Shown piece by piece: positions 20,413-47,675 of a stretch of 64,000 bases of DNA. A program made the translations under genes and the position numbers. Every line of letters starts with the position of its first letter. Positions within the stretch are counted from its first letter, which is position 1. Origin of the DNA: a virus; the IMG/VR virus record IMGVR_UViG_3300033388_005265, positions 32,001 through 96,000 of that record, one strand, 5' to 3'. Under the pieces are notes generated by a model, which made no database searches, was not told the DNA's origin, and saw only the letters and a list, made by a program, of their open reading frames with translations.

Positions 20413-21444
20413 TTACGCCTTTATATTAATTAATGGTTTAACATGGTGCATTACATGCACAAGATCACTCTGAGCTTCCATAACCTTAAATGGATCTTTA
20501 TATGCAAGCTTTGATTCATCAAGAGTTCCTTTTTCTACTTTAGCTACAATATCGCTTCTTTTCATTCTATTTCTAAAGGCAGACATACTTAGTCTTTCTC
20601 TTATGACTGCACCGGTAATCTCGTCTCTTTTGCCTTCTTTGGCTTCTCTTCTGCCCATTAATCTTCCAGCTCCATGAGAGCTTGAGCATAGGCTATCAGG
20701 ATTACCTTTTCCTCTGACTATGAATGATCCATCTTCCATATTGCCTGGGATAACTCCCAACATGCCAACTTCAGCATGAGTAGCTCCTTTTCTATGAATC
20801 CATTCGCCATCTTTTAGATCTGCATGGTTATGATTACTATTTATAATTAATTTATCGTTTTTACGTATGAGCCAAGTTGCAAGCTTAACAGATAATGCTT
20901 TAGGTAATATCTTGCCAATAACACCTATAACTCTAGCAGCCATTTGTCTTCTGTTTTCAAGAGCAAATTCAAGACAGAAGTTAAGGTCAGTTATATAGTC
21001 CTTACCATCTTGAGAATTTACATCTAATGCATAGTGACCTTCTCTAGCCTTTCCTACACCAGATGCTGCTTTCATGTAGTGAGTAGCTGAAGAATGACCT
21101 ACATTTCTGCTTCCTGAATGGATAATAATCCATACATCGTCATTCTCGTCATAACCTATTTCTATAAAATGGTTCCCACCACCAAGCGTACACAGCTGTC
21201 TAAATCCACCTTTGTCATTAAACATTTCAACCATAAATGGAGTCGCAGCAGTATCCTTATATGCAGGCCATTTAGACTTCTTATCATTCTTATTGAATCC
21301 AGTAGGAATAGCTTCATATATAGCATCAAAGATTTCCTTCCTATAAGACAGGATATCTTCCTTTGCATCTTTTCTTCTTCTTATATCATCTTTGTGGTCA
21401 TCTGCTGATCCGAATGAACCTCCAAATCCTATATCCCATTCCAT
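20413..21444 (-). CDS. rtcB: RtcB RNA ligase, N-terminally truncated
   Basis: LGGGNHFIE, HSGSR, HRKGAT, SHGAGR present; N-terminal MPDxH and DIGCG Cys motifs absent. Confidence 0.85.
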   Translation of the reverse strand: MEWDIGFGGSFGSADDHKDDIRRRKDAKEDILSYRKEIFDAIYEAIPTGFNKNDKKSKWPAYKDTAATPFMVEMFNDKGGFRQLCTLGGGNHFIEIGYDENDDVWIIIHSGSRNVGHSSATHYMKAASGVGKAREGHYALDVNSQDGKDYITDLNFCLEFALENRRQMAARVIGVIGKILPKALSVKLATWLIRKNDKLIINSNHNHADLKDGEWIHRKGATHAEVGMLGVIPGNMEDGSFIVRGKGNPDSLCSSSHGAGRLMGRREAKEGKRDEITGAVIRERLSMSAFRNRMKRSDIVAKVEKGTLDESKLAYKDPFKVMEAQSDLVHVMHHVKPLINIKA

Positions 21445-34066: not shown

Positions 34067-34143
34067 TGGCACCGGAACTAGGACTTGAACCCAGACATCT
34101 TTGGTTTTGGAAACCACTGTTTTACCAATTAAACTATTCCGGC
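34067..34143 (-). tRNA. trnW: tRNA-Trp(CCA)
   Basis: Loop TT-CCA-AA; CCA end. Confidence 0.85.
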
Positions 34144-34442
34144 TCCCTAACTATGTATTCGTATGTACCATCATCTTGTAATGGAATATTAGAATTCTCT
34201 CTACCTACTTCTGTAAGAATACATGTAACAACTTCAGTTTTTACTAATCTTTTAACAGGATGATTATTATACTCGTTACGGTATTCCATGCTTTTTTCTT
34301 CATAGTTTCTATGAGCGCATGCTTGTCCTCTTGCACCACTAATACTATAAAGTTTTCCTCTTTTCAAATAGTAATGAGATCCATCTGAATATACAAGTCT
34401 AACTCTATAAACATATTCTCGTTCCATATTAGTTATTATCAC
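34134..34442 (-). CDS. hypothetical protein (paralogue of 38264-38578); stop codon lies inside tRNA-Trp
   Basis: EYVYRV.L...DG..YY.K.GK.Y. Confidence 0.6.
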   Translation of the reverse strand: MIITNMEREYVYRVRLVYSDGSHYYLKRGKLYSISGARGQACAHRNYEEKSMEYRNEYNNHPVKRLVKTEVVTCILTEVGRENSNIPLQDDGTYEYIVREPE

Positions 34443-34728
34443 CTACCATACTATCTCTGAGGTCTAACAGAGCATAAGTATTCTCATTTCTAGGTAAATC
34501 ATCAATTATCAATACTCTCCTATTATCTGAGCAGCCGCCTCTTCTAGGCTTACTTGGTGTTCTTTGAAATGAATATCGTGCATTTGTATAGAATACAGAC
34601 ACTCTACCAGCATCTACATGATCTACAACACCAAGATCAAGAGCTCCATCGTTACCTTGTCTCTTTCCTATTGCTACTATTTGTCCTCTACTGATTGTTC
34701 TTCCTATTTTATCGTTCATTAAACGCAC
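34429..34728 (-). CDS. hypothetical protein (SH3-like beta)
   Basis: DKIGRTI..GQIV pattern. Confidence 0.55.
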   Translation of the reverse strand: MRLMNDKIGRTISRGQIVAIGKRQGNDGALDLGVVDHVDAGRVSVFYTNARYSFQRTPSKPRRGGCSDNRRVLIIDDLPRNENTYALLDLRDSMVGDNN

Positions 34729-34770
34729 CTATACACTAGTATTAGTCTCTTATTAAAATTTACTTGGAAA

Positions 34771-34845
34771 TGGCTCCGCATCCTAGGTTCGAACTAGGGA
34801 CCTTCTCCTTAACAGGGAGTTGCTCTACCACTGAGCTAATACGGA
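34771..34845 (-). tRNA. trnN: tRNA-Asn(GTT)
   Basis: CT-GTT-AA; CCA. Confidence 0.92.
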
Positions 34846-34916
34846 ACATTAATTTAAACGGTGGGTTCACTAAGATTCGAAGCCACTTTGTCTAATGAAT
34901 TGTTTTATACTATACC

Positions 34917-35534
34917 ATGGGAACATACATAAAGTTAAAATGTCCAACATGTGACATGTCTTTTAATAAACCATTCAAAGAGTACAATAGAGCTAATAAG
35001 CGTGGACATGCACATGTGTGCTCTAGAGCATGTCGTGACAAAAAACGATCATTTGACAACACTACCAAAACACATTGTACTAATTGCGATAAATCACTTA
35101 TTATGGCTAATTCAGCTATAAAAAAGTCTAAATCTGGCAATCATTTTTGTTCTAGATCATGTGCTGCTACTTATAACAACAAAAATAAAACCTATGGTAC
35201 TCGTCGTAGTAAACTTGAAGTATTCATAGAGGACAAACTTCAATCTGAATTACCTGATCTTATTTTTATTGCAAATAGCAAGAAAGTTATAGGTTCAGAA
35301 TTAGATTTTTATTTCCCAGACTTAAAACTAGCCATTGAAGTTAATGGACCACTTCATTATAAACCAATTTATGGAGAAAAAAAATTCTTACAAATTCAAG
35401 CTAATGATCAAATTAAAATATCTGCCTGTCAAAAAGCTAATATTACTCTTGCTATTGTTGATAATTTAAAAGATTATACAAAATCATATGTAAATGATCG
35501 TTGGACTATTATCAAACAGATACTAATTAAATAA
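34917..35534 (+). CDS. PD-(D/E)XK (Vsr/DUF559-like) endonuclease with Zn-binding repeats
   Basis: CPTC, FCSRSCAA, ELDFYFPDLKLAIEVNGPLHY. Confidence 0.8.
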   Translation: MGTYIKLKCPTCDMSFNKPFKEYNRANKRGHAHVCSRACRDKKRSFDNTTKTHCTNCDKSLIMANSAIKKSKSGNHFCSRSCAATYNNKNKTYGTRRSKLEVFIEDKLQSELPDLIFIANSKKVIGSELDFYFPDLKLAIEVNGPLHYKPIYGEKKFLQIQANDQIKISACQKANITLAIVDNLKDYTKSYVNDRWTIIKQILIK

Positions 35535-35536
35535 AA

Positions 35537-35613
35537 TGGTGGGCCTTCCAGGGATTGAACCTGGGATATTCCGCTTATGAGGCGGATGCCTTAACCAACT
35601 AGACGAAAGGCCC
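35537..35613 (-). tRNA. tRNA-Ile2/Met(CAT)
   Basis: CT-CAT-AA; GGGCCTT acceptor; CCA. Confidence 0.88.
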
Positions 35614-35615
35614 AT

Positions 35616-35691
35616 TGGTACTCCGTGCAAGAATTGAACTTGCGACATTCCGATTAAAAGTCGGATGCTCTACCGGTTGAGCTAACGGAGC
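35616..35691 (-). tRNA. trnK: tRNA-Lys(TTT)
   Basis: CT-TTT-AA; CCA. Confidence 0.93.
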
Positions 35692-35910
35692 CTATTGCTT
35701 GAGATACTCAGGTTTGACCATCTCTGTAATTGTTTGTTGTACCATGTCTTCATAAAATATAGCGTAGCTTACATTTTTAGCTACCCAATAAGTACCATAT
35801 AGGAATACACAAAATATTAATGTACCTATTATTGAAACTCCTACTTGCATCTTTGATTCTTTACTCACTATCTTTCTCCCTAAGATTTCTTCTATAAACT
35901 TTTGCTCCAA
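35692..35910 (-). CDS. small membrane protein
   Basis: TM segment; stop abuts tRNA-Lys. Confidence 0.55.
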   Translation of the reverse strand: MEQKFIEEILGRKIVSKESKMQVGVSIIGTLIFCVFLYGTYWVAKNVSYAIFYEDMVQQTITEMVKPEYLKQ

Positions 35911-36211
35911 GTACAGTTACGACTAAAATATATAACGGCCAAGCTATACTTAAAACCATGTGCAGAATAAAAGTTACTGCTATTATTATCAACTCACCAA
36001 AGAATGATACTTCATCTTCTATGAACTTCATAGTCTTCTTATCTAATCTGAAAACTTCACCCATATCATAAAGTGCAAGTTTATTTCCAGTGTATTCAAA
36101 CCCTTTATCATTTATAAAATACCATAGAAATTTACCTATGGCATATATAGCTACCATAAGTAGCAGACAAGCTCCTGGTTTTGCAATTAAATTTACTACT
36201 GTATCGTACAT
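35861..36211 (-). CDS. membrane protein
   Basis: SD aaggag; 2-3 TM segments. Confidence 0.6.
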   Translation of the reverse strand: MYDTVVNLIAKPGACLLLMVAIYAIGKFLWYFINDKGFEYTGNKLALYDMGEVFRLDKKTMKFIEDEVSFFGELIIIAVTFILHMVLSIAWPLYILVVTVLGAKVYRRNLREKDSE

Positions 36212-36250
36212 AACTACTCCTTTGTGTACTCGAACTTAACTTTATTTTTA

Positions 36251-36275
36251 AAAAATTAGGTATACTTTCGTATAC
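36251..36275 (-). terminator. terminator downstream of tRNA-Arg
   Basis: GTATAC-GAAA-GTATAC followed by CTAATTTTTT. Confidence 0.6.
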
Positions 36276-36306
36276 ATTGTTTTATATTAACATAACAGCT
36301 AATCTA

Positions 36307-36391
36307 TGGTCTCCTGGGCAGGACTTGAACCTGCAATGCACAAGGCGACAGCTTAGAAGGCTGTTGGTCTATCCAATTAACCAACCAGGAG
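36307..36391 (-). tRNA. trnR: tRNA-Arg(TCT) with enlarged variable loop
   Basis: ACAGC-CT-TCT-AA-GCTGT; 13-nt extra loop; CCA. Confidence 0.85.
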
Positions 36392-36396
36392 AAATT

Positions 36397-36936
36397 ATGC
36401 TAGTTATGTGCAAAAATTGTAATATCGAATTCAATAAACGTCCAGCTAATGTTAAAAGAACTAAAAATCACTTTTGCTCTAGATCGTGCGCTGCAACATT
36501 TAATAACAAGGGACAACAAAAAAATCCTCCAATTGTCCGAATCTGTAAGCATTGCAAATCTGATTTCATAAGAAACAAAGCTAATAAGCGTTCTGCTACA
36601 TTGTGTGCAGATTGCAGAACTAAATTTGACACTAGATCTGATTTTTTAAAAACATTAACCTTAGGCGAATATCAAGCTAAAGAATCTGTTGCCGGTAAAC
36701 ATCCATCATGGATAAACTCTCATGTTAGGGTTCTTAACCGTTCATGGAACAAAGATATGACTAAGCTTCCATGTGCTAACTGTAACTATAGCAAGCATGT
36801 AGAGCTATGTCATAAAAAAGCAATTACCAGTTTCCCTCTTACTACAACTCTTGGAGAGATAAATGCCAGAGAGAACAATATTCAACTATGCAGAAATTGC
36901 CATTGGGAATATGATCATGGTCTGCTAAAAATTTAA
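36397..36936 (+). CDS. HNH homing endonuclease
   Basis: Start moved to MLVMCKNC; FCSRSCAA module; HVELCH...NNIQLCRNCHWEYDH. Confidence 0.85.
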   Translation: MLVMCKNCNIEFNKRPANVKRTKNHFCSRSCAATFNNKGQQKNPPIVRICKHCKSDFIRNKANKRSATLCADCRTKFDTRSDFLKTLTLGEYQAKESVAGKHPSWINSHVRVLNRSWNKDMTKLPCANCNYSKHVELCHKKAITSFPLTTTLGEINARENNIQLCRNCHWEYDHGLLKI

Positions 36937-37012
36937 TGGTGGAGCTAGAGGGAATCAAACCCACGACCTCTTGATTGCAAGTCAAGCGCTCTCTCAACTG
37001 AGCTATAGCCCC
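36937..37012 (-). tRNA. trnA: tRNA-Ala(TGC)
   Basis: CT-TGC-AA; G3:U70; CCA. Confidence 0.93.
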
Positions 37013-37036
37013 AAATATATTCTTTTTTATGACAAT

Positions 37037-37110
37037 TGGGGTGAAGCCGGGAATCGAACCCTGGTCTCCTGATCCACAGTCAAGCGTTCTACCACTGAAC
37101 TAGCGACACC
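37037..37110 (-). tRNA. trnH: tRNA-His(GTG), imperfect acceptor stem
   Basis: CT-GTG-GA; G-1/C73; two mismatches, 3' strand appears 1 nt short. Confidence 0.75.
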
Positions 37111-37268
37111 ATATTATATTGTTTGCCAGTGTCCAACAATTATACACGCTAACTGGCTGCCATGATTTTTGGAGCACAATAGGCATTAAAATATTACGGA
37201 CTCTACCTATTGAAAGACAATGCGCATTGTTGACAACTACGTCCAATTACATGTGAGTCCTAAATTAT

Positions 37269-37349
37269 TGGTACCAGCGGGGAGACTCGAACTCCCACCC
37301 GAAGACTAGATCCTAAGTCTAGCGTGTCTACCAATTCCACCACGCTGGC
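37269..37349 (-). tRNA. trnL: tRNA-Leu(TAG)
   Basis: CTAGA-CT-TAG-GA-TCTAG; variable arm; CCA. Confidence 0.92.
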
Positions 37350-37358
37350 ACATATTAT

Positions 37359-37568
37359 TTAAGCATTTTGCAGCTTACAATGTGCTAAGAAGCCATCATT
37401 ATATTCTATTGCTTTACTGTCTCTAAAGCATGTTGCACCTGCAAGTATATTAGTCTTATCTTTAAGACGAAAGAATGGACATTCATTTCCACAATGACCG
37501 TCTCTATCTACAATAGACTTTGCTTTCCTATCTGAAATCTTTCCTGAACTTATCACTTGACACCTCAT
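37359..37568 (-). CDS. small Cys-rich protein
   Basis: CG.ECPF...C...C. Confidence 0.5.
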   Translation of the reverse strand: MRCQVISSGKISDRKAKSIVDRDGHCGNECPFFRLKDKTNILAGATCFRDSKAIEYNDGFLAHCKLQNA

Positions 37569-37999
37569 TTGTAATTTCGTGCTATAGCACTTGCAATTTT
37601 GCCGTCATATTTTCCTGGGTATTTAGCAGCCAGATCTTTCATGACTTTACCCATGTCTTTTGGCATAGTATATTTGTTTTCAGTCACCATAACAGATATT
37701 ATAGTCTTTAATTCATCTTCTGTCAACTGTTTTGGCAAGTATCTTTCAATAAGTTTTTTTTCTGCTTGCAAAGGCTCTGTTTGTACTTCCGGAGGACATA
37801 CTTTTAAAGTCTCATCAATATGCTTTATAAAGCTTTTAGCTATCTTGATTACTTCTTCATCAGTAGACTCTCTATTGCCTTTGGTTTTACCAACCATGGC
37901 AGCTTCACTATATAGGACTGTTAATGTTGCAGCTTTACGCTTATCTCCAGCCTTTCTGCATGCAACTTGATCATCCTTTATTTCTTGTATTAGACTCAT
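37565..37999 (-). CDS. yqeY: YqeY (GatB/YqeY domain) protein
   Basis: TDEEVIK, YLPKQLTEDEL, KDMGKVMK, DGK..S. Confidence 0.9.
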   Translation of the reverse strand: MSLIQEIKDDQVACRKAGDKRKAATLTVLYSEAAMVGKTKGNRESTDEEVIKIAKSFIKHIDETLKVCPPEVQTEPLQAEKKLIERYLPKQLTEDELKTIISVMVTENKYTMPKDMGKVMKDLAAKYPGKYDGKIASAIARNYK

Positions 38000-38282
38000 C
38001 TTCTTCTCCTGGTTTAACCAGTCTTATTTTTTCTCGTCTTTCTTCTGGTGTCTTTGTTCTAGTTAAATTTGCAGGATGTTGTTGTCCTTCAAAATCTACA
38101 TGCATTACATTGCAATCATGTCTTATACACCATACTTGCAATCCATCAGGAGTCCATCCTACTTCATAACGAGCGTATTCCTTCATAGATGTATTGCCGG
38201 GTTTTTCTTTAAAACATCTAGTACAATGTAAATATTGTAAAATCTCGTTATTATGCCCAACCATTATTCTTGCTCCGCACAC
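37971..38282 (-). CDS. conserved hypothetical protein
   Basis: HC..C...EVGWT..GLQVWC.RH..NV.H.DFEG..HPAN. Confidence 0.65.
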   Translation of the reverse strand: MCGARIMVGHNNEILQYLHCTRCFKEKPGNTSMKEYARYEVGWTPDGLQVWCIRHDCNVMHVDFEGQQHPANLTRTKTPEERREKIRLVKPGEEDESNTRNKG

Positions 38283-38578
38283 TCATAAAGAAATTTTCCC
38301 TTAGGTAGAGATTGAATAGTATTATCATTAGTTTCTTGTAATGCATATGGAATCACTTTTGCTGACTTTAACTTAATCCTATCTCGGACAATATAGTCAG
38401 GATTTCTTTCCAGTCTTCTTAATGTAATTCTAGCTTCTCTTTCTTCTATCCCTATTCTGTATGAAGCCGTTCTTCTTGCCGGACCTATGTTTTGATAGAT
38501 TTTACCGTCCTTCATATAATAGCTGGTTCCATCTTCAAATGTCAACAGTACTCTGTAAACGTATTCTTTCTCTTTCAT
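38264..38578 (-). CDS. hypothetical protein (paralogue of 34134-34442)
   Basis: EYVYRVLL...DG.SYYMKDGKIY. Confidence 0.6.
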   Translation of the reverse strand: MKEKEYVYRVLLTFEDGTSYYMKDGKIYQNIGPARRTASYRIGIEEREARITLRRLERNPDYIVRDRIKLKSAKVIPYALQETNDNTIQSLPKGKFLYECAEQE

Positions 38579-38591
38579 ACAGCCTCTAAAA

Positions 38592-38666
38592 TGGAGCGGG
38601 AGAAGGGACTCGAACCCTCAGCAGTCTGCTTGGAAGGCAGAAACTCTACCATTGAGTTACTCCCGC
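38592..38666 (-). tRNA. trnG: tRNA-Gly(TCC)
   Basis: CT-TCC-AA; CCA. Confidence 0.93.
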
Positions 38667-39145
38667 TCATGTTCTTTAAAATGTAACACAGTATGACATC
38701 TAGTACAATATAACGTACATTGTTGTATTTCTTTTAATATCCTTTCCCATGACCATCCTTTCATTCTAGCAAAATTTGGATCTTTTGCAGTAGGATCAAG
38801 ATGGTGAATAGCTAATGCACATTCGTACTCGTCATATCCACATTCTATGCATTTTCCGCCTAAATAGGCTATTGCTTTACTTCTGTTTTTTTTAAAGCGT
38901 TTTATAGATAGCTGATTATGACAGTTCTTACATGTTGTTTTTCCTTTTCCGTAAAATTTATCTGGACTAGTTTCTCCACACTTACATCTATATTCATGCT
39001 TATCTTTTATGTGTACCTTGCTTGTATTATGCTCACCCCATGGTGAACAAGTTAAACAATACTTTCTGTTACATAGGTTTTTTGTCTTTCCGTCTATCTT
39101 AATTCTATTTGGAAATTTATTATTGCACTTCTTGCATACTGGCAT
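38657..39145 (-). CDS. HNH homing endonuclease; stop inside tRNA-Gly
   Basis: CKKC, YCLTCSPWG, GGKCIECG, HHLDP, LYCTRCH. Confidence 0.85.
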   Translation of the reverse strand: MPVCKKCNNKFPNRIKIDGKTKNLCNRKYCLTCSPWGEHNTSKVHIKDKHEYRCKCGETSPDKFYGKGKTTCKNCHNQLSIKRFKKNRSKAIAYLGGKCIECGYDEYECALAIHHLDPTAKDPNFARMKGWSWERILKEIQQCTLYCTRCHTVLHFKEHERE

Positions 39146-39290
39146 CTATGGAATCCTCCTAAGGGTTTCCATAGTATTAAACAAGAGCGCAACTTAAATG
39201 CTAATTTATTTTACTTTTCATCTAAGCTACGCTCTTAATCTATAATCCTGTGCTGACTTCTTTAGCTATTTTAGTCAGCAATTTTGCCAT

Positions 39291-40211
39291 TCAATCGGGC
39301 ATATCATCGCCACATTCCTCACATATTGCTTTAAATGGAGGAAGAAAAGCCGAAGGATTTCCATAATTATAATCCTTTGCTACTTCAGAAAAACTCTTTG
39401 CGATATCTACCGCTTGCTCAAGAGTTTTCTTGTAAACAAGCATGTAAGTCATAACTGCTTTTACATGGTCTATTGATAGTCCTGCAGTTTGTTCTGCAAG
39501 TTCAACCATATCAATCTTTTCCTGAGCTTCTATAGGTAGCTTAGCTTTCAAGATCTGAGCTCTATGATCAGCAGACGGAAGTGGAATCTCCTTTACAAAG
39601 TTAAACCTTGACGGGCGATTCTTTATTCTATCTGAAACCTTATGCATATAATTGGTTGCAGCAAGATAAATAACTCCAGGCTCAGACAGATGTCCATCAA
39701 GGAAGTTCAAGATATCCATCTCAGCATTACCTCTTGAATGCTTTTCAAACTCATCTGCAACGATCATGATCAGTCTATCTGGATCACCATCTCTTATAGT
39801 CTCCACAATAGTAGAGTACATATTTGTAGCTGGACCATATATGACTATTGCATCATGCTTAGCTATAAACCATTCGATCAGCTGATGCATAAACGATGTC
39901 TTACCGGTTCCTGGCTTACCATACAACAGTATACCAGTTTTCCATAGTGTGCCTAGTGTCCTGTGAGCTTCCTTTCCTTCATCTGAAGCAAAGTTATCCA
40001 CATATGTTCTAAGCTCATCATATATACCACCTTCAAGCTTGATTAGCTCGTCAAAGTTCATTTCCATCTCTGTGAATAGCGGAGGACTGAACATTGGAAT
40101 ACTAAAATGATATGTTCCAGCTGGTAATCTTTTTGCAACTTTGCCTTCTTTTGGGGTAGGCTGATAACTAAACTGCTTTTCTTTGAACTCATTGTTTATT
40201 CTATATGACAT
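39291..40211 (-). CDS. AAA+ ATPase
   Basis: GILLYGKPGTGKT, VADEFE, AATN, RPSRF. Confidence 0.9.
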   Translation of the reverse strand: MSYRINNEFKEKQFSYQPTPKEGKVAKRLPAGTYHFSIPMFSPPLFTEMEMNFDELIKLEGGIYDELRTYVDNFASDEGKEAHRTLGTLWKTGILLYGKPGTGKTSFMHQLIEWFIAKHDAIVIYGPATNMYSTIVETIRDGDPDRLIMIVADEFEKHSRGNAEMDILNFLDGHLSEPGVIYLAATNYMHKVSDRIKNRPSRFNFVKEIPLPSADHRAQILKAKLPIEAQEKIDMVELAEQTAGLSIDHVKAVMTYMLVYKKTLEQAVDIAKSFSEVAKDYNYGNPSAFLPPFKAICEECGDDMPD

Positions 40212-40248
40212 TTTTTCTCCTATTTTGATTTTTATTAAATTATATTTT

Positions 40249-40339
40249 TGGCGGAGGGAGAGAGGATCGAACTCTCAAGGCTGTTACACTCGGCGGTTTT
40301 CAAGACCGCTGCCGTCGCCAACCGTCGGCTTGCCCCTCC
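40249..40339 (-). tRNA. trnS: tRNA-Ser(TGA)
   Basis: CT-TGA-AA; long arm; CCA. Confidence 0.93.
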
Positions 40340-40492
40340 ATTCTTAAAACTTAAACACAAACATGTCTTCACAAGTTGTAGTATAGCTATCAGTTGTATC
40401 CATTTTTAACGTGCTCTCTGGATCACATCCATTAAATGAAGCACATCCTGTTGATGTTAACAGTATAATTAGTAATAATATTTTTTTCATAA

Positions 40493-40912
40493 CTACCAAC
40501 TGTTCTGCCTATGATTTGTTGCCCACTTTATACGGCCAGTATTATTTATGCCACCAGTATTATCAAAAGCAGCTCTTTTTTTGTCAATACTTTTATCTAT
40601 TGTAGCTTTTTCTTGTTCTGCTAAAGCTATTAATTTAGCTTCTTTAGCTTTTCTTTCTCTTTCTGCATCTTCTTCTGCTACTACGTTAGCACCAAGTCTT
40701 TTTATTCTTAACTTTTTGATCAGTTCTTTCTTAGCACTTATAGTCATACTACATAAAGACTTACCTTCATCTGATCTCCACCATTCATTAAAATCAGAAG
40801 TGACTTTTTCTGATAGCCTGAGTTCAGAAAACAACGCTTTATTCCAACTCATATCAACAGTAGCACAACCAAATGACATTAAAATTATAATTAACAATAT
40901 TACTTTTTTCAT
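40493..40912 (-). CDS. putative lipoprotein
   Basis: MKK + hydrophobic stretch + lipobox SFGC. Confidence 0.65.
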   Translation of the reverse strand: MKKVILLIIILMSFGCATVDMSWNKALFSELRLSEKVTSDFNEWWRSDEGKSLCSMTISAKKELIKKLRIKRLGANVVAEEDAERERKAKEAKLIALAEQEKATIDKSIDKKRAAFDNTGGINNTGRIKWATNHRQNSW

Positions 40913-40922
40913 TAATTCTCCT

Positions 40923-41000
40923 TGGAGGGCCCTACAGGACTCGAACCTGTGACCTCTTGGTTCGTAGCCAAGCGCTCTAATCCAACTGAGCTAAGGACCC
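40923..41000 (-). tRNA. trnR: tRNA-Arg(ACG)
   Basis: CT-ACG-AA; CCA. Confidence 0.93.
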
Positions 41001-41206
41001 AGATCTTTTTTAACATCAGTAAGAATCTGTTTAAATGTTTTCTTTAAGTCTGGCCAAATACTCTTCCATTCTTTAATCAATACTTTTATTTCATCTGAAT
41101 TAAATATCCAGAAGTATGGAATTGATCCTCCAGATACAGCCGGTATAAAGATTTGTGTTATGAATAAAAATATTATTAAAAATACAATAAATGCTACAGC
41201 TATCAT
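40991..41206 (-). CDS. small membrane protein; stop inside tRNA-Arg(ACG)
   Basis: Start moved to MIAVAF (SD aggaga); N-terminal TM. Confidence 0.6.
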   Translation of the reverse strand: MIAVAFIVFLIIFLFITQIFIPAVSGGSIPYFWIFNSDEIKVLIKEWKSIWPDLKKTFKQILTDVKKDLGP

Positions 41207-41224
41207 CTTTTCTCCTTTCTTAAA

Positions 41225-41300
41225 TGGTAGACGAAGCAGGGTTCGAACCTGCGACATCAGCCTTGTAAAAGCTGCGCTCTCCCAGCTGAGCTATTCGTCC
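41225..41300 (-). tRNA. trnV: tRNA-Val(TAC)
   Basis: TT-TAC-AA; CCA. Confidence 0.93.
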
Positions 41301-41848
41301 ATTTTTAATTTATTACGTGTTCTTCTGCCTTTTCCTTTATTAAGAGCTCCAAATGTTGGTGTTAACGAATGACAACTAGGGCAAATTAACTCCATATTTT
41401 TTGGAATTGTATTTTGAAAGTCTCCATCCTTGTGTTCTGCTTGCACTGGAACTTTACCTGTAGCCGGATTAACTTCCTTCCAACCACATCTTTCGCATTT
41501 ATCTCCTCTTGTTTCTCTAAGCCAACGTTTTACATTATTAGAGATCTGATCTTGTGCTTTTCCTATATTTCCAGTCTCAAGTCCTTTTAACCATCTTTCT
41601 ATATATAATTTGTATTGAAAATCACTTTTACATGTAGAGCTACAATATTTAGCTTCATATCTTCCTACTATATTTTCACAGTTAAGACATTTTCCTTTTT
41701 TTCTATCTTTTTCATGTATTTGCTTTGTATTGTGTTCACCCCATGGCGAACAATCTAAACAGTACTTTCTATTGCCTAAATTTTTCTGTACTCCTTCTAT
41801 TCTTATTTTAAACGGAAACTTCTCATTACACTTCTTACATATCGGCAT
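41291..41848 (-). CDS. HNH homing endonuclease; stop inside tRNA-Val
   Basis: N-terminus shared with 38657; CERCG, AEHKDG...N.ELICPSCHSLT. Confidence 0.87.
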   Translation of the reverse strand: MPICKKCNEKFPFKIRIEGVQKNLGNRKYCLDCSPWGEHNTKQIHEKDRKKGKCLNCENIVGRYEAKYCSSTCKSDFQYKLYIERWLKGLETGNIGKAQDQISNNVKRWLRETRGDKCERCGWKEVNPATGKVPVQAEHKDGDFQNTIPKNMELICPSCHSLTPTFGALNKGKGRRTRNKLKMDE

Positions 41849-41945
41849 CCTATGGATCCTCCTTTAAAGGGTTTCCATAGTATTAAACCAAAGCGTAACT
41901 TAAATGACTAGTTTATTTATTTTTATTGCAAGATTGCAGACTAAG

Positions 41946-42182
41946 TTACTCGTCCACATCTTTTTTAGTATTCCTAAATTTCATTGAACTTGCACTATAA
42001 GCAGCTTGGTAGAAATCAACCATCTTCTCTGCTATCTCATCAGCCATCTTTTTTAATTCAGGCTGTTCATCAAGCATTTCATGTTGAGATATATTAGTAT
42101 CCCAAGAATCCTGCAAGACACTTGCTCTATCCATTACTTCATGATATCCAAACTCATCATTCGCAGGCATTATCTTTTTCAT
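41946..42182 (-). CDS. hypothetical protein
   Basis: GYHEVMDRA motif; helical. Confidence 0.55.
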   Translation of the reverse strand: MKKIMPANDEFGYHEVMDRASVLQDSWDTNISQHEMLDEQPELKKMADEIAEKMVDFYQAAYSASSMKFRNTKKDVDE

Positions 42183-42339
42183 CCTTGATTATCTTATCGC
42201 TTTCCCTTCTTCTTGCTTTGTTTATCATTTTTTTGAAATATTTAGTAATACCATTTTTACTTGCATTTTTAGACCAATCGTATCTAAACATTTTAAAGTG
42301 AGCTTCACTCTTAGTCCCCGGTTTCATCTTTTCCTTATT

Positions 42340-42414
42340 TGGAGGGCAAAGAGGGAATCGAACCCCCGTAAACTGGGTTGCAATCAGTCACCTAAGCCAC
42401 TCGGACACTTGCCC
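42340..42414 (-). tRNA. trnC: tRNA-Cys(GCA)
   Basis: TT-GCA-AC; U73; CCA. Confidence 0.88.
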
Positions 42415-42418
42415 TTAT

Positions 42419-42496
42419 TGGTGGAGAGAGGAGGAGTCGAACCTCAGGCCTCCTGTGCTTCAAACAGGCGCTCTACCACAGCTGAGCTACCTCTCC
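42419..42496 (-). tRNA. trnF: tRNA-Phe(GAA)
   Basis: TT-GAA-GC; CCA. Confidence 0.9.
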
Positions 42497-42509
42497 ATAT
42501 TTTAAATAA

Positions 42510-42585
42510 TGTAGGCGGGCAAGATTTGAACTTGCGTCCTCCAGCTAAACCGCTGGCGCTCTACCGGACTGAGCTACCAACCTAC
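42510..42585 (-). pseudogene. tRNA-like element with 6-nt anticodon loop
   Basis: D and T arms normal; CCAGC-GGTTTA-GCTGG; no full CCA. Confidence 0.65.
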
Positions 42586-42602
42586 CTTCACATAAATAGA
42601 GT

Positions 42603-42673
42603 AAATACGCAAGAGTCGAACTTGCCATCTCCCGGCTTGTGCCAGGTGCCCTGCCCGCTTAGGCCACTATCTA
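42603..42673 (-). pseudogene. tRNA-like element with 6-nt anticodon loop
   Basis: CCTGG-CACAAG-CCGGG; T arm GCAAG-TTCGACT-CTTGC; no CCA. Confidence 0.6.
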
Positions 42674-43167
42674 CATCTATGTAAATTCTGTTTTTTCTTC
42701 TTTATGTTTCTGCCTGTGAATGTGTCCAATTGACTATCACAATGCGGACATACCATTCTTAGATTCTCTATCCTATTGTCATTATTTGTGCCATTAATAT
42801 GATCTAATCTTAGTACTAATGGTTTTCCTTGCCACTCTGGTCTTATGCCACATATTTGGCATTTATTTTTTAACAATCCTTTTTCAAATAGTCTTTTTTT
42901 TAAATTAGTATTATTGTTATATGTACTATTTTCGACTAATATCTTTTCTAATGGAATTTTTTTAGCCCAATCGTGTTTTCTATCTTTTAAATAGCCTTGT
43001 CCTGTGAAATGAGATACATCTAAATTAAGTCTTTTAATAGCGTTGTTTAAAGTATTATAATTTCCTCCAGCTGGAATTAATCCTAATTTCTTTATTGCTG
43101 CCGCCTTTGAAAAACATGCCTTAACTGCTTTTGATACATCGTCATCTGTATATGATTTTTCTCTCAT
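42667..43167 (-). CDS. HNH homing endonuclease
   Basis: CQICG, LRLDHINGTNNDNRIENLRMVCPHCDSQ. Confidence 0.9.
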   Translation of the reverse strand: MREKSYTDDDVSKAVKACFSKAAAIKKLGLIPAGGNYNTLNNAIKRLNLDVSHFTGQGYLKDRKHDWAKKIPLEKILVENSTYNNNTNLKKRLFEKGLLKNKCQICGIRPEWQGKPLVLRLDHINGTNNDNRIENLRMVCPHCDSQLDTFTGRNIKKKKQNLHRCR

Positions 43168-43190
43168 CTTATTGACCTCATTATATTATT

Positions 43191-43267
43191 TGGTAGGAGT
43201 GATGGGATTCCAACCCACACTTAATAGGGCTTAAACCTATTGCCTCTGGCAATTGGGCTACACTCCT
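43191..43267 (-). tRNA. trnL: tRNA-Leu(TAA), atypical (short variable loop)
   Basis: ATAGG-TT-TAA-GC-CCTAT; D loop lacks GG; T loop TTGGAAT; CCA. Confidence 0.75.
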
Positions 43268-43445
43268 ATACTCTAATATAAACAAAATCAACTAAATGGA
43301 AGACTTATTTTTTTATTATTCTCTTACGTCTACCTGTTCCTTTTATCCGAATATCAAAAATAATACTATGGAAGCTACTAATATTGCACCTGCCACCTTT
43401 GTTAGTATCATTGTAGTCCTACATGTATCTGTTTTACATTCCATC

Positions 43446-43982
43446 TTACCATCCATCACTATTCCTATTTGACCAATTAGTTCTTTTTCCGTCATCCTTT
43501 ATCGCATTCTTTATCGGACTTGACATCCCTGATACTTTTAACTTTTCTTCTGGAGGTTGAAAACTTGGTTCTACTCCATTACTCCAAGGAGACTCTGTCC
43601 AAACGTATCCTTCTGGTGTTGCCTTTATTCTTATTTTTCCTTCAATGGCATCTCTCTGTCCTTCGAAATATGCCTCTTCCATTGCTTTTCCAATGGGAGT
43701 ATCTGATAATCTAGCTTTTTTTACAGCCTTGCCACTTTCAACTCTATCTTTAATATCCCTGTACTCTTTTAAAGAGTTTGTTCCACGAGTCTTTAAAGAA
43801 GCTAACCATGCTTTCTTTGTTAATGTAGTAACATTATTTTCAACAGCATAATTATAATATGCTCTTTCTCTATAACTAGCAAACTGTGGAATAGCTATAG
43901 CTGCAAGCATACCTACAATAACCACAACAATTAACAATTCTATAAGGGTAAAGCCACATGGATCTTCTTTACTATACATCAT
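43446..43982 (-). CDS. type IV pilin-like protein (prepilin N-terminal methylation site)
   Basis: G|FTLIELLIVVVIVGMLAAIAIPQFASYRERAY with E5; SD aaggag. Confidence 0.9.
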   Translation of the reverse strand: MMYSKEDPCGFTLIELLIVVVIVGMLAAIAIPQFASYRERAYYNYAVENNVTTLTKKAWLASLKTRGTNSLKEYRDIKDRVESGKAVKKARLSDTPIGKAMEEAYFEGQRDAIEGKIRIKATPEGYVWTESPWSNGVEPSFQPPEEKLKVSGMSSPIKNAIKDDGKRTNWSNRNSDGW

Positions 43983-43997
43983 AACTACTCCTTAAAT

Positions 43998-44072
43998 TGG
44001 TAGGACTACCTGGGTTCGAACCAGGGACCTTCTGCTTATCAGGCAGATGCTCTACCGCTGAGCTATAGTCCT
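43998..44072 (-). tRNA. trnI: tRNA-Ile(GAT)
   Basis: CT-GAT-AA; CCA. Confidence 0.93.
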
Positions 44073-44078
44073 AAATTA

Positions 44079-44333
44079 TTAACGATATTCTACTATTCCG
44101 CCTTCACTATTAGCGACATACATCTTATCTCCTACAGTAATAAAATATATGGCAATCCAAGGATCACTAATGGCTCTTTTCATAGTGAATTTAATTGGCT
44201 GCTCTTTCTTAGTCGCCTCATGACATCCGTTGCATCCATAATCCCAGTCACCTGCGTGAGCATAAGAAAATATACCAAGTACTGCTAACATTACTATAGA
44301 CATTATCAGTGTGTTCTTAAGCATTCTAATCAT
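44079..44333 (-). CDS. small secreted protein with one CxxCH motif
   Basis: Start moved to MIRMLK; Sec signal ending AHA|G; CNGCH. Confidence 0.6.
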   Translation of the reverse strand: MIRMLKNTLIMSIVMLAVLGIFSYAHAGDWDYGCNGCHEATKKEQPIKFTMKRAISDPWIAIYFITVGDKMYVANSEGGIVEYR

Positions 44334-44355
44334 TTCTAACTCCTTTGTTAAGGTC

Positions 44356-44389
44356 AAAAAAAATCCCACGCTCTTATGAGACATGGGAT
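44356..44389 (-). terminator. Rho-independent terminator after tRNA-Thr
   Basis: ATCCCA...TGGGAT stem followed by TTTTTT. Confidence 0.75.
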
Positions 44390-44394
44390 GGTAG

Positions 44395-44470
44395 TGGAGC
44401 CGAAGGAGGGATTCAAACCCCCGACAAGCTGATTACAAATCAGCTGCTCTATCAGCTGAGCTACATCGGC
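44395..44470 (-). tRNA. trnT: tRNA-Thr(TGT)
   Basis: TT-TGT-AA; CCA. Confidence 0.92.
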
Positions 44471-44731
44471 CTAATCTACCATCTTCTTTAGTTGCCATGA
44501 AGGTAATGTTTTTACACCACCCATAATTTTTTCATCACCGGTAATCGGCAATATCTTTCCATAACTATCATGGTCATATCTATTATCGCCATGGCACATC
44601 GAGCCAAAAGCGTATAATCCAGGTTTATCTGCATTAATATCTGTTGTGTCTATATCTTCTTGAGTTATATCTAATACAACCCAAAATCTATCGTGTCCTT
44701 CTTTTTTTACTAAAGCTCCAGAGTATAACAT
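44471..44731 (-). CDS. hypothetical protein
   Basis: SD aagga; stop abuts tRNA-Thr. Confidence 0.55.
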   Translation of the reverse strand: MLYSGALVKKEGHDRFWVVLDITQEDIDTTDINADKPGLYAFGSMCHGDNRYDHDSYGKILPITGDEKIMGGVKTLPSWQLKKMVD

Positions 44732-44772
44732 GTTCTTCCTTCTGTGTCAATTTATTATTGAAAAAAAATAAG

Positions 44773-44850
44773 TGTAGGCATGGTAGGATTCGAACCTACG
44801 GCCCTTGGGTTTATGAGCCCAAGTTCTACCTCTGATATACACTGCCTACA
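44773..44850 (-). pseudogene. tRNA-Met/Ile(CAT)-like element with 8-nt anticodon loop
   Basis: TTGGG-CTCATAAA-CCCAA; good T arm; bulged acceptor, weak D stem, no CCA. Confidence 0.65.
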
Positions 44851-45016
44851 ACTGGAATTTTGCAAGTCAAACCCTGTTATTAGGCAATTAATACTACACG
44901 ATGACTTTATAACAGATAAATACTGCTCACCAGCAAGTTCTTGGATAACCAAGAACGACCCCATAAATTACTTAATAATAAGACATATTTATTGTTATTT
45001 TGTTTTATATTATAGT

Positions 45017-45634
45017 ATGGGAGCTACAATATCATTAAAATGTCCAACATGCCTTTGTATTTTTGACAAACAAATGACAGCATATAGGCGAAGCAATAAA
45101 CGTGGCTATAATCACTTTTGTTCCAGAGAATGTGGCTTTAAAAATCACACTTCTGAAGGAACATCAAAAGTAATTTGTCGCAATTGTGATAATGTTTTCA
45201 CTAAACATAACAGTGAAATTCTAAAAAGTACTAATAATTTTTGTTCTAAATCATGTGCTGCTACATATAACAATAAGAACAAGTCTTATGGAATTCGTCG
45301 CAGTAAACTTGAAATTCATATTGAAAATAAAATTAAATCTGAATTCCCACACATATCATTCGTATCAAACTGTAAAAAAATCATAGGATCAGAACTTGAT
45401 CTATATTTTCCAAGTTTAAATCTAGCTATTGAAATCAATGGACCACTTCATTATGAGCCTATATACGGTGAAGAAAAACTTCTTCAAATTCAAGCCAACG
45501 ACAAACTTAAAATAAATGCATGTAGTGATGCTAACATTAAATTAGTTACCGTAGATAATTTACAAACCTTTTCAAAAACGTATTCTAATAAATGTTGGAA
45601 AACAATAAAACCATATTTAATTGGTGACCTATAA
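45017..45634 (+). CDS. PD-(D/E)XK endonuclease, paralogue of 34917-35534
   Basis: Start moved to MGATISLKCPTC; ELDLYFPSLNLAIEINGPLHY. Confidence 0.82.
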   Translation: MGATISLKCPTCLCIFDKQMTAYRRSNKRGYNHFCSRECGFKNHTSEGTSKVICRNCDNVFTKHNSEILKSTNNFCSKSCAATYNNKNKSYGIRRSKLEIHIENKIKSEFPHISFVSNCKKIIGSELDLYFPSLNLAIEINGPLHYEPIYGEEKLLQIQANDKLKINACSDANIKLVTVDNLQTFSKTYSNKCWKTIKPYLIGDL

Positions 45635-45696
45635 GGGGATCGAACCCTTGCTGCCTGATAGAAAGTCAGGTGTCCTAGCCACTAGACGAATAGGTC
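45622..45696 (-). tRNA. trnE: tRNA-Glu(TTC)
   Basis: CCTGA-CT-TTC-TA-TCAGG; CCA. Confidence 0.9.
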
Positions 45697-45704
45697 ATTA
45701 AATT

Positions 45705-45782
45705 TGGTCTGGATGGCAAGATTTGAACTTGCGACATCTCGCGTCCAAGGCGAGAACTCTGACCAAACTGAGCTACATCCCG
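45705..45782 (-). tRNA. trnP: tRNA-Pro(TGG)
   Basis: CT-TGG-AC; CCA. Confidence 0.9.
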
Positions 45783-46096
45783 TTATCATTATCTCCAGCA
45801 GAGTATTCTCTTAGAACCTTCTCTACCTTATTTAGTTCACTTCTTTTTTTATTTATTAAAGCAATCATATCATAAAATGGTACGACTGTCAAGTCAATTT
45901 TCTTTACAGGATCAACTGCCTTATGTATTCTTTTAGTGAGCCTACCTGAAATTATCTTTCTTATTAGAACCATATCGAAATCATTTCCAGGTTCATAATA
46001 CTTAGGGTCTTCAACCACATAATATCCTGGCTCAAAAGGCCATGATGCTGTTACTATGTCTCCTTTATGGAGTGGCTCAGTCTTTTTCATTCCCAT
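45773..46096 (-). CDS. hypothetical protein; stop inside tRNA-Pro
   Basis: KGDIV...G.YVV SH3-like start. Confidence 0.6.
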   Translation of the reverse strand: MGMKKTEPLHKGDIVTASWPFEPGYYVVEDPKYYEPGNDFDMVLIRKIISGRLTKRIHKAVDPVKKIDLTVVPFYDMIALINKKRSELNKVEKVLREYSAGDNDNGM

Positions 46097-46377: not shown

Positions 46378-46731
46378 TTATTTCCAATCTATTCTCTTAT
46401 TACCAGAATTATCTGATGCTGCATCCTTTTTACTGCCAAGTAATATATAAGTTCCACTAAAGAAAACTTTTTTCTTATCTTTAGTTCTTCCTTCCCATTC
46501 TGTTGGCGTTCCTGCATGACCGCAGATTGTACCATACATCAATATGGTATATCCAGGAATTGTCAATGTCCATGGTTTATCACTAGCATCAGATCCTGGT
46601 ACACAATCTTCTTCTGCCGCCTTTGCAGCAGTGCTTACAAACAATGTCAGGATCATTAGAACCATAAACATTACAAAACCTTTCTTAGCATTATCACTCA
46701 TTTGTATGTCCCCATTATAAATTCTTTCCAA
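46378..46731 (-). CDS. secreted protein
   Basis: Signal ending AKA|A; two Cys; true start probably MSDNAK. Confidence 0.6.
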   Translation of the reverse strand: MERIYNGDIQMSDNAKKGFVMFMVLMILTLFVSTAAKAAEEDCVPGSDASDKPWTLTIPGYTILMYGTICGHAGTPTEWEGRTKDKKKVFFSGTYILLGSKKDAASDNSGNKRIDWK

Positions 46732-47675
46732 AATTCAAAGTTAGGCTCTTCTGAAAAGCCACTATTTTCTGATAGCACTTCTATTTGATCCATTTTCTCT
46801 TCTATTAGCGGCGCCACTTCAGTCGTATAGTCTAGTTCACCTAGTTTTACTTGTCTTAAAAAGTCTGCCGATTTTAATGGAAACACTATGGTTCCAGTAG
46901 TAAATAGCTCTTCAAGCTGAAATGCAGCTCTTAATGCATGACTTAAGGCTTTCCAGTCTATATTCTCGTTGTTCTTAGCTGCCATAGCTCTAGCGCCATA
47001 TTTTTCATACACTAATTGAAGTGCATCTCTAGTGTATTTTACCTTAGCTGTTTCCTGGAACTTCCTATTACAGACCTCATACATTCTGTATCTATCTGGC
47101 TTAACACTATCATCTGTAGCTGGATGCTGAGCTATATGCTCTCCTAAAGGAAGGCAATCCCATATATCAGCAAGCTTTTCATCATCAGGACGAGTGTTCA
47201 AATATTCAATTGCCCTAGTTACTGCATCCAGTCTGGAACCTTTTATTCCATATTTAGCAGCCTGCTTTCTTGCATAGTCAACGAATGCACTTAGATTCTT
47301 ATGATAAAATTGTTCTTTGTTTATAGTAATATAGGACCAATGTAAGCTAGACTCTATTATCATTTCACAAGGAGCATGTATCATATCTATTTGTGCTGTT
47401 TGTCCTTCACATGCAAGCTTTATAAACTGATGTAAAGAGAACAATTCAACATCTATGTCATCCTTAGTATTTTTCCCTTTTTCATCACCGCTACTATGAT
47501 TTATAGTTGGCTGTGCTTTTTGCAATATTAAGTCTTCTTTAGATGGAAGAAATACTCCTTTATAATCTACGTCACTATGCTCAGTATCAGTACCATATAA
47601 ATGGCTACCAAATTTCATAAGAACTACTAGTTCTCGTCCATCAAGCAATTCACGTACAACTTCCATGTCAGTCAT
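46698..47675 (-). CDS. DNA polymerase-beta superfamily nucleotidyltransferase (RlaP-like)
   Basis: FGSHLYGT....SDVDYKGVF; WKAL.HA.R; LR.VK.G. Confidence 0.85.
   Translation of the reverse strand: MTDMEVVRELLDGRELVVLMKFGSHLYGTDTEHSDVDYKGVFLPSKEDLILQKAQPTINHSSGDEKGKNTKDDIDVELFSLHQFIKLACEGQTAQIDMIHAPCEMIIESSLHWSYITINKEQFYHKNLSAFVDYARKQAAKYGIKGSRLDAVTRAIEYLNTRPDDEKLADIWDCLPLGEHIAQHPATDDSVKPDRYRMYEVCNRKFQETAKVKYTRDALQLVYEKYGARAMAAKNNENIDWKALSHALRAAFQLEELFTTGTIVFPLKSADFLRQVKLGELDYTTEVAPLIEEKMDQIEVLSENSGFSEEPNFEFWKEFIMGTYK

Follow-up and report, generated by a model that had tools for sequence, protein, structure and literature searches.

Open reading frames ending inside tRNA genes

We analysed a stretch of 64,000 nucleotides, called the window below, taken from the IMG/VR virus record IMGVR_UViG_3300033388_005265 (positions 32,001 to 96,000 of that record), in which several open reading frames (ORFs) end inside the transfer RNA (tRNA) gene located just downstream. 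The virus contig containing the window is 119,163 bp long, has a G+C content of 38% and carries 22 tRNA genes. Twenty of these form a 12-kb array on the minus strand (34067-45782, detected with ARAGORN), and the array tRNAs as well as their 5' ends are backed by Rfam. The spacing is tight on both sides of the tRNAs, Shine-Dalgarno sequences are located within tRNA trailers, and the ORF table displays numerous gene-gene overlaps in this region.

Five ORFs use nucleotides 8-10 of a tRNA as their stop codon, namely those preceding tRNA-Trp, tRNA-Gly, tRNA-Arg(ACG), tRNA-Val and tRNA-Pro. This observation of the original prediction is borne out by ARAGORN, Rfam, the ORF table and the junction print-out. 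The stop is TAG in four of the five cases, the tRNA-Gly junction alone having TAA. Two other ORFs abut a tRNA with zero spacing, as had also been described, and their TAG directly precedes nucleotide 1. A gene of the HNH endonuclease type (42667-43167) does end inside a tRNA-like element, but its stop corresponds to nucleotides 6-8 in the relaxed ARAGORN model and not to the predicted nucleotides 5-7. We detected a further stop on nucleotides 8-10 in the ORF 41946-42182, which ends on a fossil tRNA-Val (41955-41940). The features of these junctions are the following:

34134..34442, minus strand: ORF of 102 amino acids, no family; its TAG (34136-34134) is nucleotides 8-10 of tRNA-Trp (ORF table, codon usage)
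34067..34143, minus strand: tRNA-Trp(CCA), 5' end at 34143 (ARAGORN; Rfam, 59.5 bits)
38657..39145, minus strand: HNH endonuclease gene, cassette copy 1; its TAA (38659-38657) is nucleotides 8-10 of tRNA-Gly (phrog_2255, E 2e-35)
38592..38666, minus strand: tRNA-Gly(UCC), 5' end at 38666; allele unlike that of the relative, with TAA and another D-loop (ARAGORN, Rfam, comparison with the related phage L250)
40991..41206, minus strand: ORF of 71 amino acids with a hydrophobic N-terminus; its TAG (40993-40991) is nucleotides 8-10 of tRNA-Arg(ACG) (ORF table, strong Shine-Dalgarno sequence)
40923..41000, minus strand: tRNA-Arg(ACG), 5' end at 41000 (ARAGORN, Rfam)
41291..41848, minus strand: HNH endonuclease gene, cassette copy 2; its TAG (41293-41291) is nucleotides 8-10 of tRNA-Val (PHROG)
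41225..41300, minus strand: tRNA-Val(UAC), 5' end at 41300; allele unlike that of the relatives, with a compensated 7:66 pair (ARAGORN, Rfam, comparison)
41946..42182, minus strand: ORF of 78 amino acids, ended by the TAA of the fossil tRNA-Val (ORF table)
41940..41955, minus strand: fossil of the resident tRNA-Val, nucleotides 1-12(16), its nucleotides 8-10 being TAA (comparison with relatives)
42667..43167, minus strand: HNH endonuclease gene of another family (phrog_10822); its stop is nucleotides 6-8 of a degenerate tRNA (PHROG, ARAGORN)
42599..42674, minus strand: degenerate tRNA-like gene with a 6-nt anticodon loop (relaxed ARAGORN)
45773..46096, minus strand: ORF of 107 amino acids, no family; its TAG (45775-45773) is nucleotides 8-10 of tRNA-Pro (ORF table, codon usage, homologues)
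45705..45782, minus strand: tRNA-Pro(UGG), 5' end at 45782 (ARAGORN, Rfam)
35692..35910, minus strand: ORF of 72 amino acids, TAG directly before nucleotide 1 of tRNA-Lys (ORF table)
44471..44731, minus strand: ORF of 86 amino acids, TAG directly before nucleotide 1 of tRNA-Thr (ORF table)

The tRNAs at the overlaps are canonical and likely functional: their Rfam scores are comprised between 58.6 and 69.5 bits for a threshold of 29, and their CCA ends are encoded. Concerning the ORFs, their codon-usage scores lie within the range of known genes, and the ORFs preceding tRNA-Trp and tRNA-Pro (Trp ORF and Pro ORF) have metagenome homologues with 54-93% identity; three small ORFs had no match with tblastn. 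From their codon usage, their HNH matches and these homologues, the overlapping ORFs look real. For the ORF preceding tRNA-Arg(ACG), the longest version (start at 41257) begins inside tRNA-Val, and the start at 41206 (71 amino acids) is located downstream of tRNA-Val.

HNH cassettes in tRNA genes

The comparison of DNA with the phages of GenBank revealed no close relative of this phage, and at the protein level only distant matches were obtained there (AAA+ ATPase, nucleotidyltransferase and DnaE-like polymerase). A search for related loci with the AAA ATPase returned a single, irrelevant locus. The related phages L250 and L252 (both from one sample), L251, L253 and L254 were reached through homologues of the Pro and Trp ORFs, and their junctions were compared singly.

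The homing-nuclease domain of the genes 38657-39145, 41291-41848 and 42667-43167 is indicated by matches to PHROG HNH families with E values from 1e-14 to 1e-47; the Pfam HNH matches of 42667-43167 fall just below the cut-off. All three genes have the orientation of the array and are absent at their sites in L250, and one of them is common to L251. The first two are paralogues whose proteins are 37% identical. They possess a common 5' untranslated region, in which a predicted hairpin extends over both the Shine-Dalgarno sequence and the start codon (-12.4 and -17.2 kcal/mol for copies 1 and 2, respectively). This hairpin is conserved in the two window copies and in a third copy found in L251. 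Two elements belong to copy 1:

39143..39174, minus strand: hairpin over the Shine-Dalgarno sequence and start codon of the HNH gene (-12.4 kcal/mol)
39221..39232, minus strand: leftover of the 5' end of the resident tRNA-Gly, upstream of the HNH cassette (comparison with L250)

L250 has no HNH gene at this site, and its AAA ATPase gene stops 14 nt ahead of tRNA-Gly. In the window, the same leader and the 5' leftover of tRNA-Gly are followed by the HNH cassette and then by a different allele of tRNA-Gly. The tRNA-Val site has the same organization. The window displays successively the 78-amino-acid ORF, the tRNA-Val fossil, a leader of about 90 nt, the HNH gene and a complete tRNA-Val of another allele; in L250 and L251 the orthologue of the 78-amino-acid ORF ends on nucleotides 8-10 of an intact tRNA-Val, with no HNH insertion. 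Beside each window cassette, the tRNA is thus of an allele that differs both from the leftover and from the tRNA of the relatives, a difference that would be compatible with a co-conversion of flanking markers.

The third copy (64% identical) is located inside tRNA-Arg(ACG) of L251 (L251:15171-15880) and has its own TAA stop. It leaves nucleotides 1-30 of the tRNA on one side and its last 7 nt on the other, and ARAGORN finds no intact tRNA-Arg(ACG) in the stretch of L251 that was read, which ends about 1.5 kb beyond the cassette. Since this tRNA is broken and no intact copy is called, insertion of the cassette can also abolish the tRNA that it targets. The comparison does not support a single exact insertion point for all copies: the window copies break the tRNA after nucleotides 12-16 and the L251 copy after about nucleotide 30.

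Of nine distant homologues of the HNH proteins, eight belong to tRNA arrays and precede a tRNA. The position of their stops varies, from 2-16 nt ahead of this tRNA up to its nucleotides 17-19 or 37-39. The 5' untranslated region of the cassette is not conserved in these homologues, and two of their loci (L124 and L127) also display tRNA 5' fragments upstream. Such a putative tRNA-targeting HNH cassette is possibly new.

Three additional HNH or homing-endonuclease-like ORFs are encoded on the plus strand (34917-35534, 36277-36936 and 44780-45634), and they end at or inside the 3' ends of the minus-strand tRNA-Met, tRNA-Ala and tRNA-Glu. The 12-kb array contains six HNH-like genes.

Junctions in related phages

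The overlap with tRNA-Pro is retained in three phages, with TAG in the window and in L250 and TAA in L251, across an in-frame indel of 3 nt. At the tRNA-Trp junction, the homologues with 93% and 78% identity retain the overlap and the homologue with 54% identity (L254) has its own TAA; the two states, own TAA and TAG of the tRNA, are separated by one indel of 8 nt. The ORF of 71 amino acids at tRNA-Arg(ACG) is contained in a segment of 217 nt that is absent from L250, where tRNA-Val and tRNA-Arg are only 7 nt apart. For the third HNH gene (42667-43167), the stop lies in the leader in L251 and, owing to an indel of 1 nt, in the tRNA-like gene in the window, and its last codons are encoded by a spacer that is also present where the HNH gene is lacking. 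The stops of the two abutting ORFs slide by 1-3 nt between phages: before tRNA-Lys, the stop of the relatives is one codon earlier than that of the window, and before tRNA-Thr the G of the TAG is nucleotide 1 of the tRNA in the relatives.

The Pro ORF contains a predicted promoter:

45864..45892, minus strand: near-consensus promoter of the sigma-70 type (predicted), about 75 nt before tRNA-Pro (sequence)

This site is unchanged in three phages except for a few substitutions in its spacer, and such a conserved promoter suggests that the supply of the tRNA is independent of the ORF transcript. Promoter-like and terminator-like sites as a whole show no enrichment in comparison with shuffled sequences, and the conserved site of the Pro ORF is the one retained here.

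Census of ORF-tRNA junctions

A background was obtained from 234 random IMG/VR viral loci containing 1,682 tRNAs, which were pulled with two D-arm patterns. The ORFs considered have at least 80 amino acids, cross no other tRNA and end at most 12 nt upstream of a tRNA or on its nucleotides 8-10. The three frames A, B and C are represented by 36, 30 and 30 junctions, a uniform distribution (p 0.69), and the frame giving stops on nucleotides 8-10 is not preferred in general. Such stops occur in 10 of the 96 junctions (about 10%), which makes them the commonest single overlap position; another 28 ORFs end elsewhere inside a tRNA. When an ORF in frame A (2-5-8) faces a tRNA with a stop triplet at nucleotides 8-10, this triplet is used in 10 cases and the ORF stops a few bases upstream in 10 others. 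The sharing of a stop between an ORF and a tRNA is widespread and not peculiar to this phage.

The 11 tight junctions of the window are divided into 5 in frame A, 5 in frame B and 1 in frame C, a distribution that is not significant (chi-square p 0.23). Counted against a frame-random expectation, as the original prediction had proposed, the frames match chance in the census and in the window, whereas the number of stops on nucleotides 8-10 in the window exceeds the background.

In this random sample, 15 of the 27 tRNA-overlapping ORFs belong to homing-endonuclease families, versus 5 of the 20 that stop just short of the tRNA (p 0.044). An enrichment of TAA at overlapped tRNAs was also considered in three related phages (3/10 versus 0/18, p 0.037). 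It was dropped because a non-overlapped tRNA-Lys of L252 has TAA and no background case at nucleotides 8-10 uses TAA.

Origin of the overlaps

We consider it probable that the overlaps are a structural by-product of the building of the array, in which homing-endonuclease genes and small ORFs were packed against tRNAs. Homing-endonuclease genes have colonized the array, together with small accessory ORFs placed flush against the tRNAs. An ORF reaching a tRNA in the 2-5-8 frame would then read on to the near-universal U8-A9-R10 and end there because this triplet is the first stop in that frame. Two of the five cases are copies of one mobile HNH cassette seated in the 5' part of a tRNA gene, bordered upstream by the first 12 nt or so of the resident tRNA and downstream by a complete tRNA of another allele. 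The remaining cases probably arose, or persist, through small indels or flush insertions.

The consequences for expression can be deduced from established biology, which includes both RNase P cleavage and ribosome rescue. As the ORF and the tRNA share DNA, they must be co-transcribed, and as RNase P cuts at nucleotide 1 of the tRNA, the upstream RNA is left without a stop codon. The unprocessed precursor would therefore be the only template giving these ORFs a proper stop. After cleavage, ribosomes arriving later would stall, their rescue being ensured by transfer-messenger RNA (tmRNA) or ArfA, and only the ribosomes finishing before cleavage would release a normal protein. This loss of the stop probably lowers the yield of the proteins, and it need not have been selected for. 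The original prediction had proposed tRNA maturation as a built-in off-switch; its physical premise holds by this reasoning, and a by-product of array construction is favoured over a built-in switch.

Several observations weigh against the by-product explanation. The overlaps at tRNA-Pro, tRNA-Trp and tRNA-Val are retained in relatives at about 80% protein identity, and this retention spans the in-frame indel of 3 nt and changes from G10 to A10 that preserve a stop. The indels come from an unrooted comparison, which is compatible with an own stop having been lost or acquired. Stops on nucleotides 8-10 are found at 5 of 10 window junctions versus 10 of 96 in the background (binomial p 0.002), and all five frame-A ORFs of the window lack an own stop versus 10 of 20 (p 0.06), both p values being uncorrected for the fact that the window had been picked for this feature. 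Finally, the enrichment in homing endonucleases is predicted equally well by a selected brake on toxic nucleases.

A more specific model for the cassettes, of fairly low probability, can be put forward tentatively. HNH homing cassettes might target the 5' half of tRNA genes (the D-stem region) and leave a dead tRNA copy of about 12 nt upstream and an intact tRNA downstream, the ORF ending on U8-A9-R10. Their output might be tied to the processing of the tRNA precursor by both the hairpin on the ribosome-binding site and the loss of the stop, and most ORF-tRNA overlaps of phage tRNA arrays might originate from homing-endonuclease genes.

Selection for an off-switch seems unlikely. According to it, the stop is kept in the tRNA so that RNase P yields a non-stop messenger RNA, which would limit toxic products and couple their output to RNase P activity. 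The excess of stops on nucleotides 8-10 in the window, the conservation of three overlaps in relatives and the enrichment of nucleases among overlapping ORFs would agree with it, and the HNH cassettes add a hairpin on the ribosome-binding site, which gives the pair of controls proposed in PMC2330249 for SegB of phage T4. However, the frames of the junctions are random in the 234 contigs, the stop positions of the HNH homologues are varied, an own stop being present in several of them and also in the Trp-ORF homologue with 54% identity. Moreover, three of the five ORFs are not recognizable nucleases, the ORF 41946-42182 works with a fossil stop that is beyond removal by RNase P, and the insertion of cassettes into tRNA genes explains the nuclease enrichment equally well.

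Less probable still is compaction or chance alone, in which a deletion bias pushed the ORFs against the tRNAs and mobile elements played no role. The random use of frames, the tight packing of the array with its Shine-Dalgarno sequences in tRNA trailers, the numerous gene-gene overlaps and the 8-nt indel at the tRNA-Trp junction are all in line with it. It does not account for two of the five cases, nor for the tRNA-like case, which are HNH insertions absent in relatives and accompanied by tRNA leftovers, nor for six HNH-like genes in 12 kb, nor for the nucleases enriched among overlapping ORFs. The "mere compaction" that had been named as the simpler alternative to a switch is favoured by the random frames and by the varied stop positions of the HNH homologues, with the insertion of mobile elements added to it; in related phages, overlaps are seen to be produced by cassette insertion and by small indels.

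A recoding of TAG, by which four of the five stops would be sense codons and to which the odd tRNA-like genes of the array could be related, was rejected as highly improbable: standard-code ORFs of at least 80 amino acids already span 86% of the contig, reading TAG as sense gains no more than reading TGA or TAA as sense, ARAGORN finds no tRNA with a CUA anticodon in the contig, code 11 leaves the large replication genes uninterrupted, and TAG and TAA alternate at the same junctions in relatives.

Comparison with known systems

The arrangement resembles that of phage T5 (NC_005859), where small ORFs and HNH genes are interspersed on the same strand in a tRNA array. In T5, the genes hegD, hegC and T5.069 end at nucleotides 23, 14 and 24 of the next tRNA, respectively, T5.057 overlaps tRNA-Met, and T5.065 abuts tRNA-Lys like the abutting ORFs of the window. 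In contrast to the window, the T5 overlaps use the other two frames and reach nucleotides 14-24, none being on nucleotides 8-10, and the phage studied here is not a relative of T5. The proteins of hegC and hegD have no detectable similarity with the HNH proteins of the window, and nothing on the nucleases of the T5 tRNA region was found in PMC3017599 or PMC10448857.

In phage T4, the tRNA cluster encodes SegB, a free-standing homing endonuclease of the GIY-YIG type (Brok-Volchanskaya et al. 2008, PMC2330249). The Discussion of that article proposes two brakes for segB, a hairpin at the start and a cleavage of the tRNA-Arg precursor between the last codon and the stop codon, and the same regulatory idea is suggested for the F-Tfl nucleases of T5. 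As in the window, this nuclease gene lies between tRNA genes; it is transcribed together with them, and its product targets such genes, as the HNH cassettes of the window would do. The hairpin on the ribosome-binding site and the loss of the stop in the HNH cassettes resemble these two controls, both brakes being proposals in either system. The differences are the nuclease type (GIY-YIG versus HNH), the end of segB, which is located 5 nt before tRNA-Arg in the current T4 record and not inside it, and the target, since SegB recognizes the T-arm whereas the cassettes break the tRNA in the D-stem, and further in for the L251 copy. Because the switch was published in 2008 for segB and the T5 nucleases, the regulatory idea is not new, and the present case is a further example of a known arrangement, with the architecture of T5 and the switch proposed for T4 and T5.

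Two other systems share some of these traits. The tRNA punctuation of mitochondria, with incomplete stop codons, was reportedly described by Ojala, Montoya and Attardi in 1981; the leftover U or UA is completed to UAA by polyadenylation. There too, the excision of the tRNA sets the 3' end of the upstream messenger RNA and the ORF extends up to the tRNA. In the window, by contrast, the whole stop lies within the tRNA and is lost on cleavage, with no completion mechanism evident. No partial stop (U or UA) is found at the predicted messenger RNA ends of these junctions: the full stop is at nucleotides 8-10 and the seven preceding bases are the acceptor stem. Integrative elements insert in tRNA genes by means of integrases and carry a replacement for the displaced 3' end of the tRNA. 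They resemble the cassettes in that the target tRNA is intact after insertion and a partial tRNA copy is present at the other border. They differ from the window, where an HNH cassette leaves behind the 5' end of the tRNA and where break repair would be the mechanism.

A stop codon shared with a tRNA is a recurrent and countable feature of phage tRNA arrays, for which the census supplies a background rate of about 10% of tight ORF-tRNA junctions. The feature is tied largely to homing-endonuclease genes that live in tRNA genes and sometimes break them. The junctions with or without a cassette, with an own stop or the stop of the tRNA, and with a fossil stop constitute a natural series for the throttling proposed in 2008 for SegB and the F-Tfl nucleases. 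Annotation pipelines that forbid overlaps between a coding sequence and a tRNA will mis-call such gene ends.

Other features of the array and of the contig

The degenerate tRNA-like gene 42599-42674, called by ARAGORN at a relaxed threshold only, was undetected in the Rfam scan; its orthologues in L250 and L251 are called as tRNAs at the default settings of ARAGORN. Together with 42510-42585 (minus strand), it forms a tandem of tRNA-like genes with extended acceptor stems (8 bp) and 6-nt anticodon loops. The position of this pair is conserved in L250 and L251, and the anticodon loops vary (called "His atg", "His gtg" and "???" by ARAGORN). The T5 array is likewise annotated with tRNA-like stable RNAs of unknown function.

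A tRNA of 77 nt with the anticodon UAA and no long variable arm is located at 43191-43267 on the minus strand (Rfam, 53.7 bits). It co-occurs with the HNH gene 42667-43167 in the window and in L251; in L250, which is devoid of this HNH gene, the matching place is occupied by a tRNA-Leu(UAA) of the canonical type with a long arm. An extra tRNA-like element at 44774-44847 (minus strand) has a Rfam score of 31.4 bits, just above the threshold, and its anticodon loop, of 8 nt, includes CAT. At the corresponding position in L251, ARAGORN calls a tRNA-Met. In the window this element overlaps the antisense HNH-like ORF 44780-45634.

Genes for tRNA-related enzymes flank the array or sit within it: an RtcB-like tRNA ligase (20413-21444), a YqeY-like protein or "tRNA amidotransferase" (37565-37999) and a nucleotidyltransferase of the NrdC.11/RlaP type (46698-47675), all on the minus strand. 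T5 also has a YqeY-like or "tRNA amidotransferase" gene beside its array. Concerning the contig, no portal, capsid or tail protein was recognized among its 8 longest ORFs. The longest ORFs correspond to genes of replication and nucleotide metabolism and to a terminase at the contig end. The related sample gives two contigs of 111 and 70 kb, and the contig perhaps represents a portion of a larger, jumbo phage genome. Finally, an ORF of 178 amino acids located in the middle of the array (43446-43982, minus strand) displays an N-terminal methylation motif like that of type IV pilins (Pfam N_methyl, E 7.5e-07) and is conserved in both relatives.

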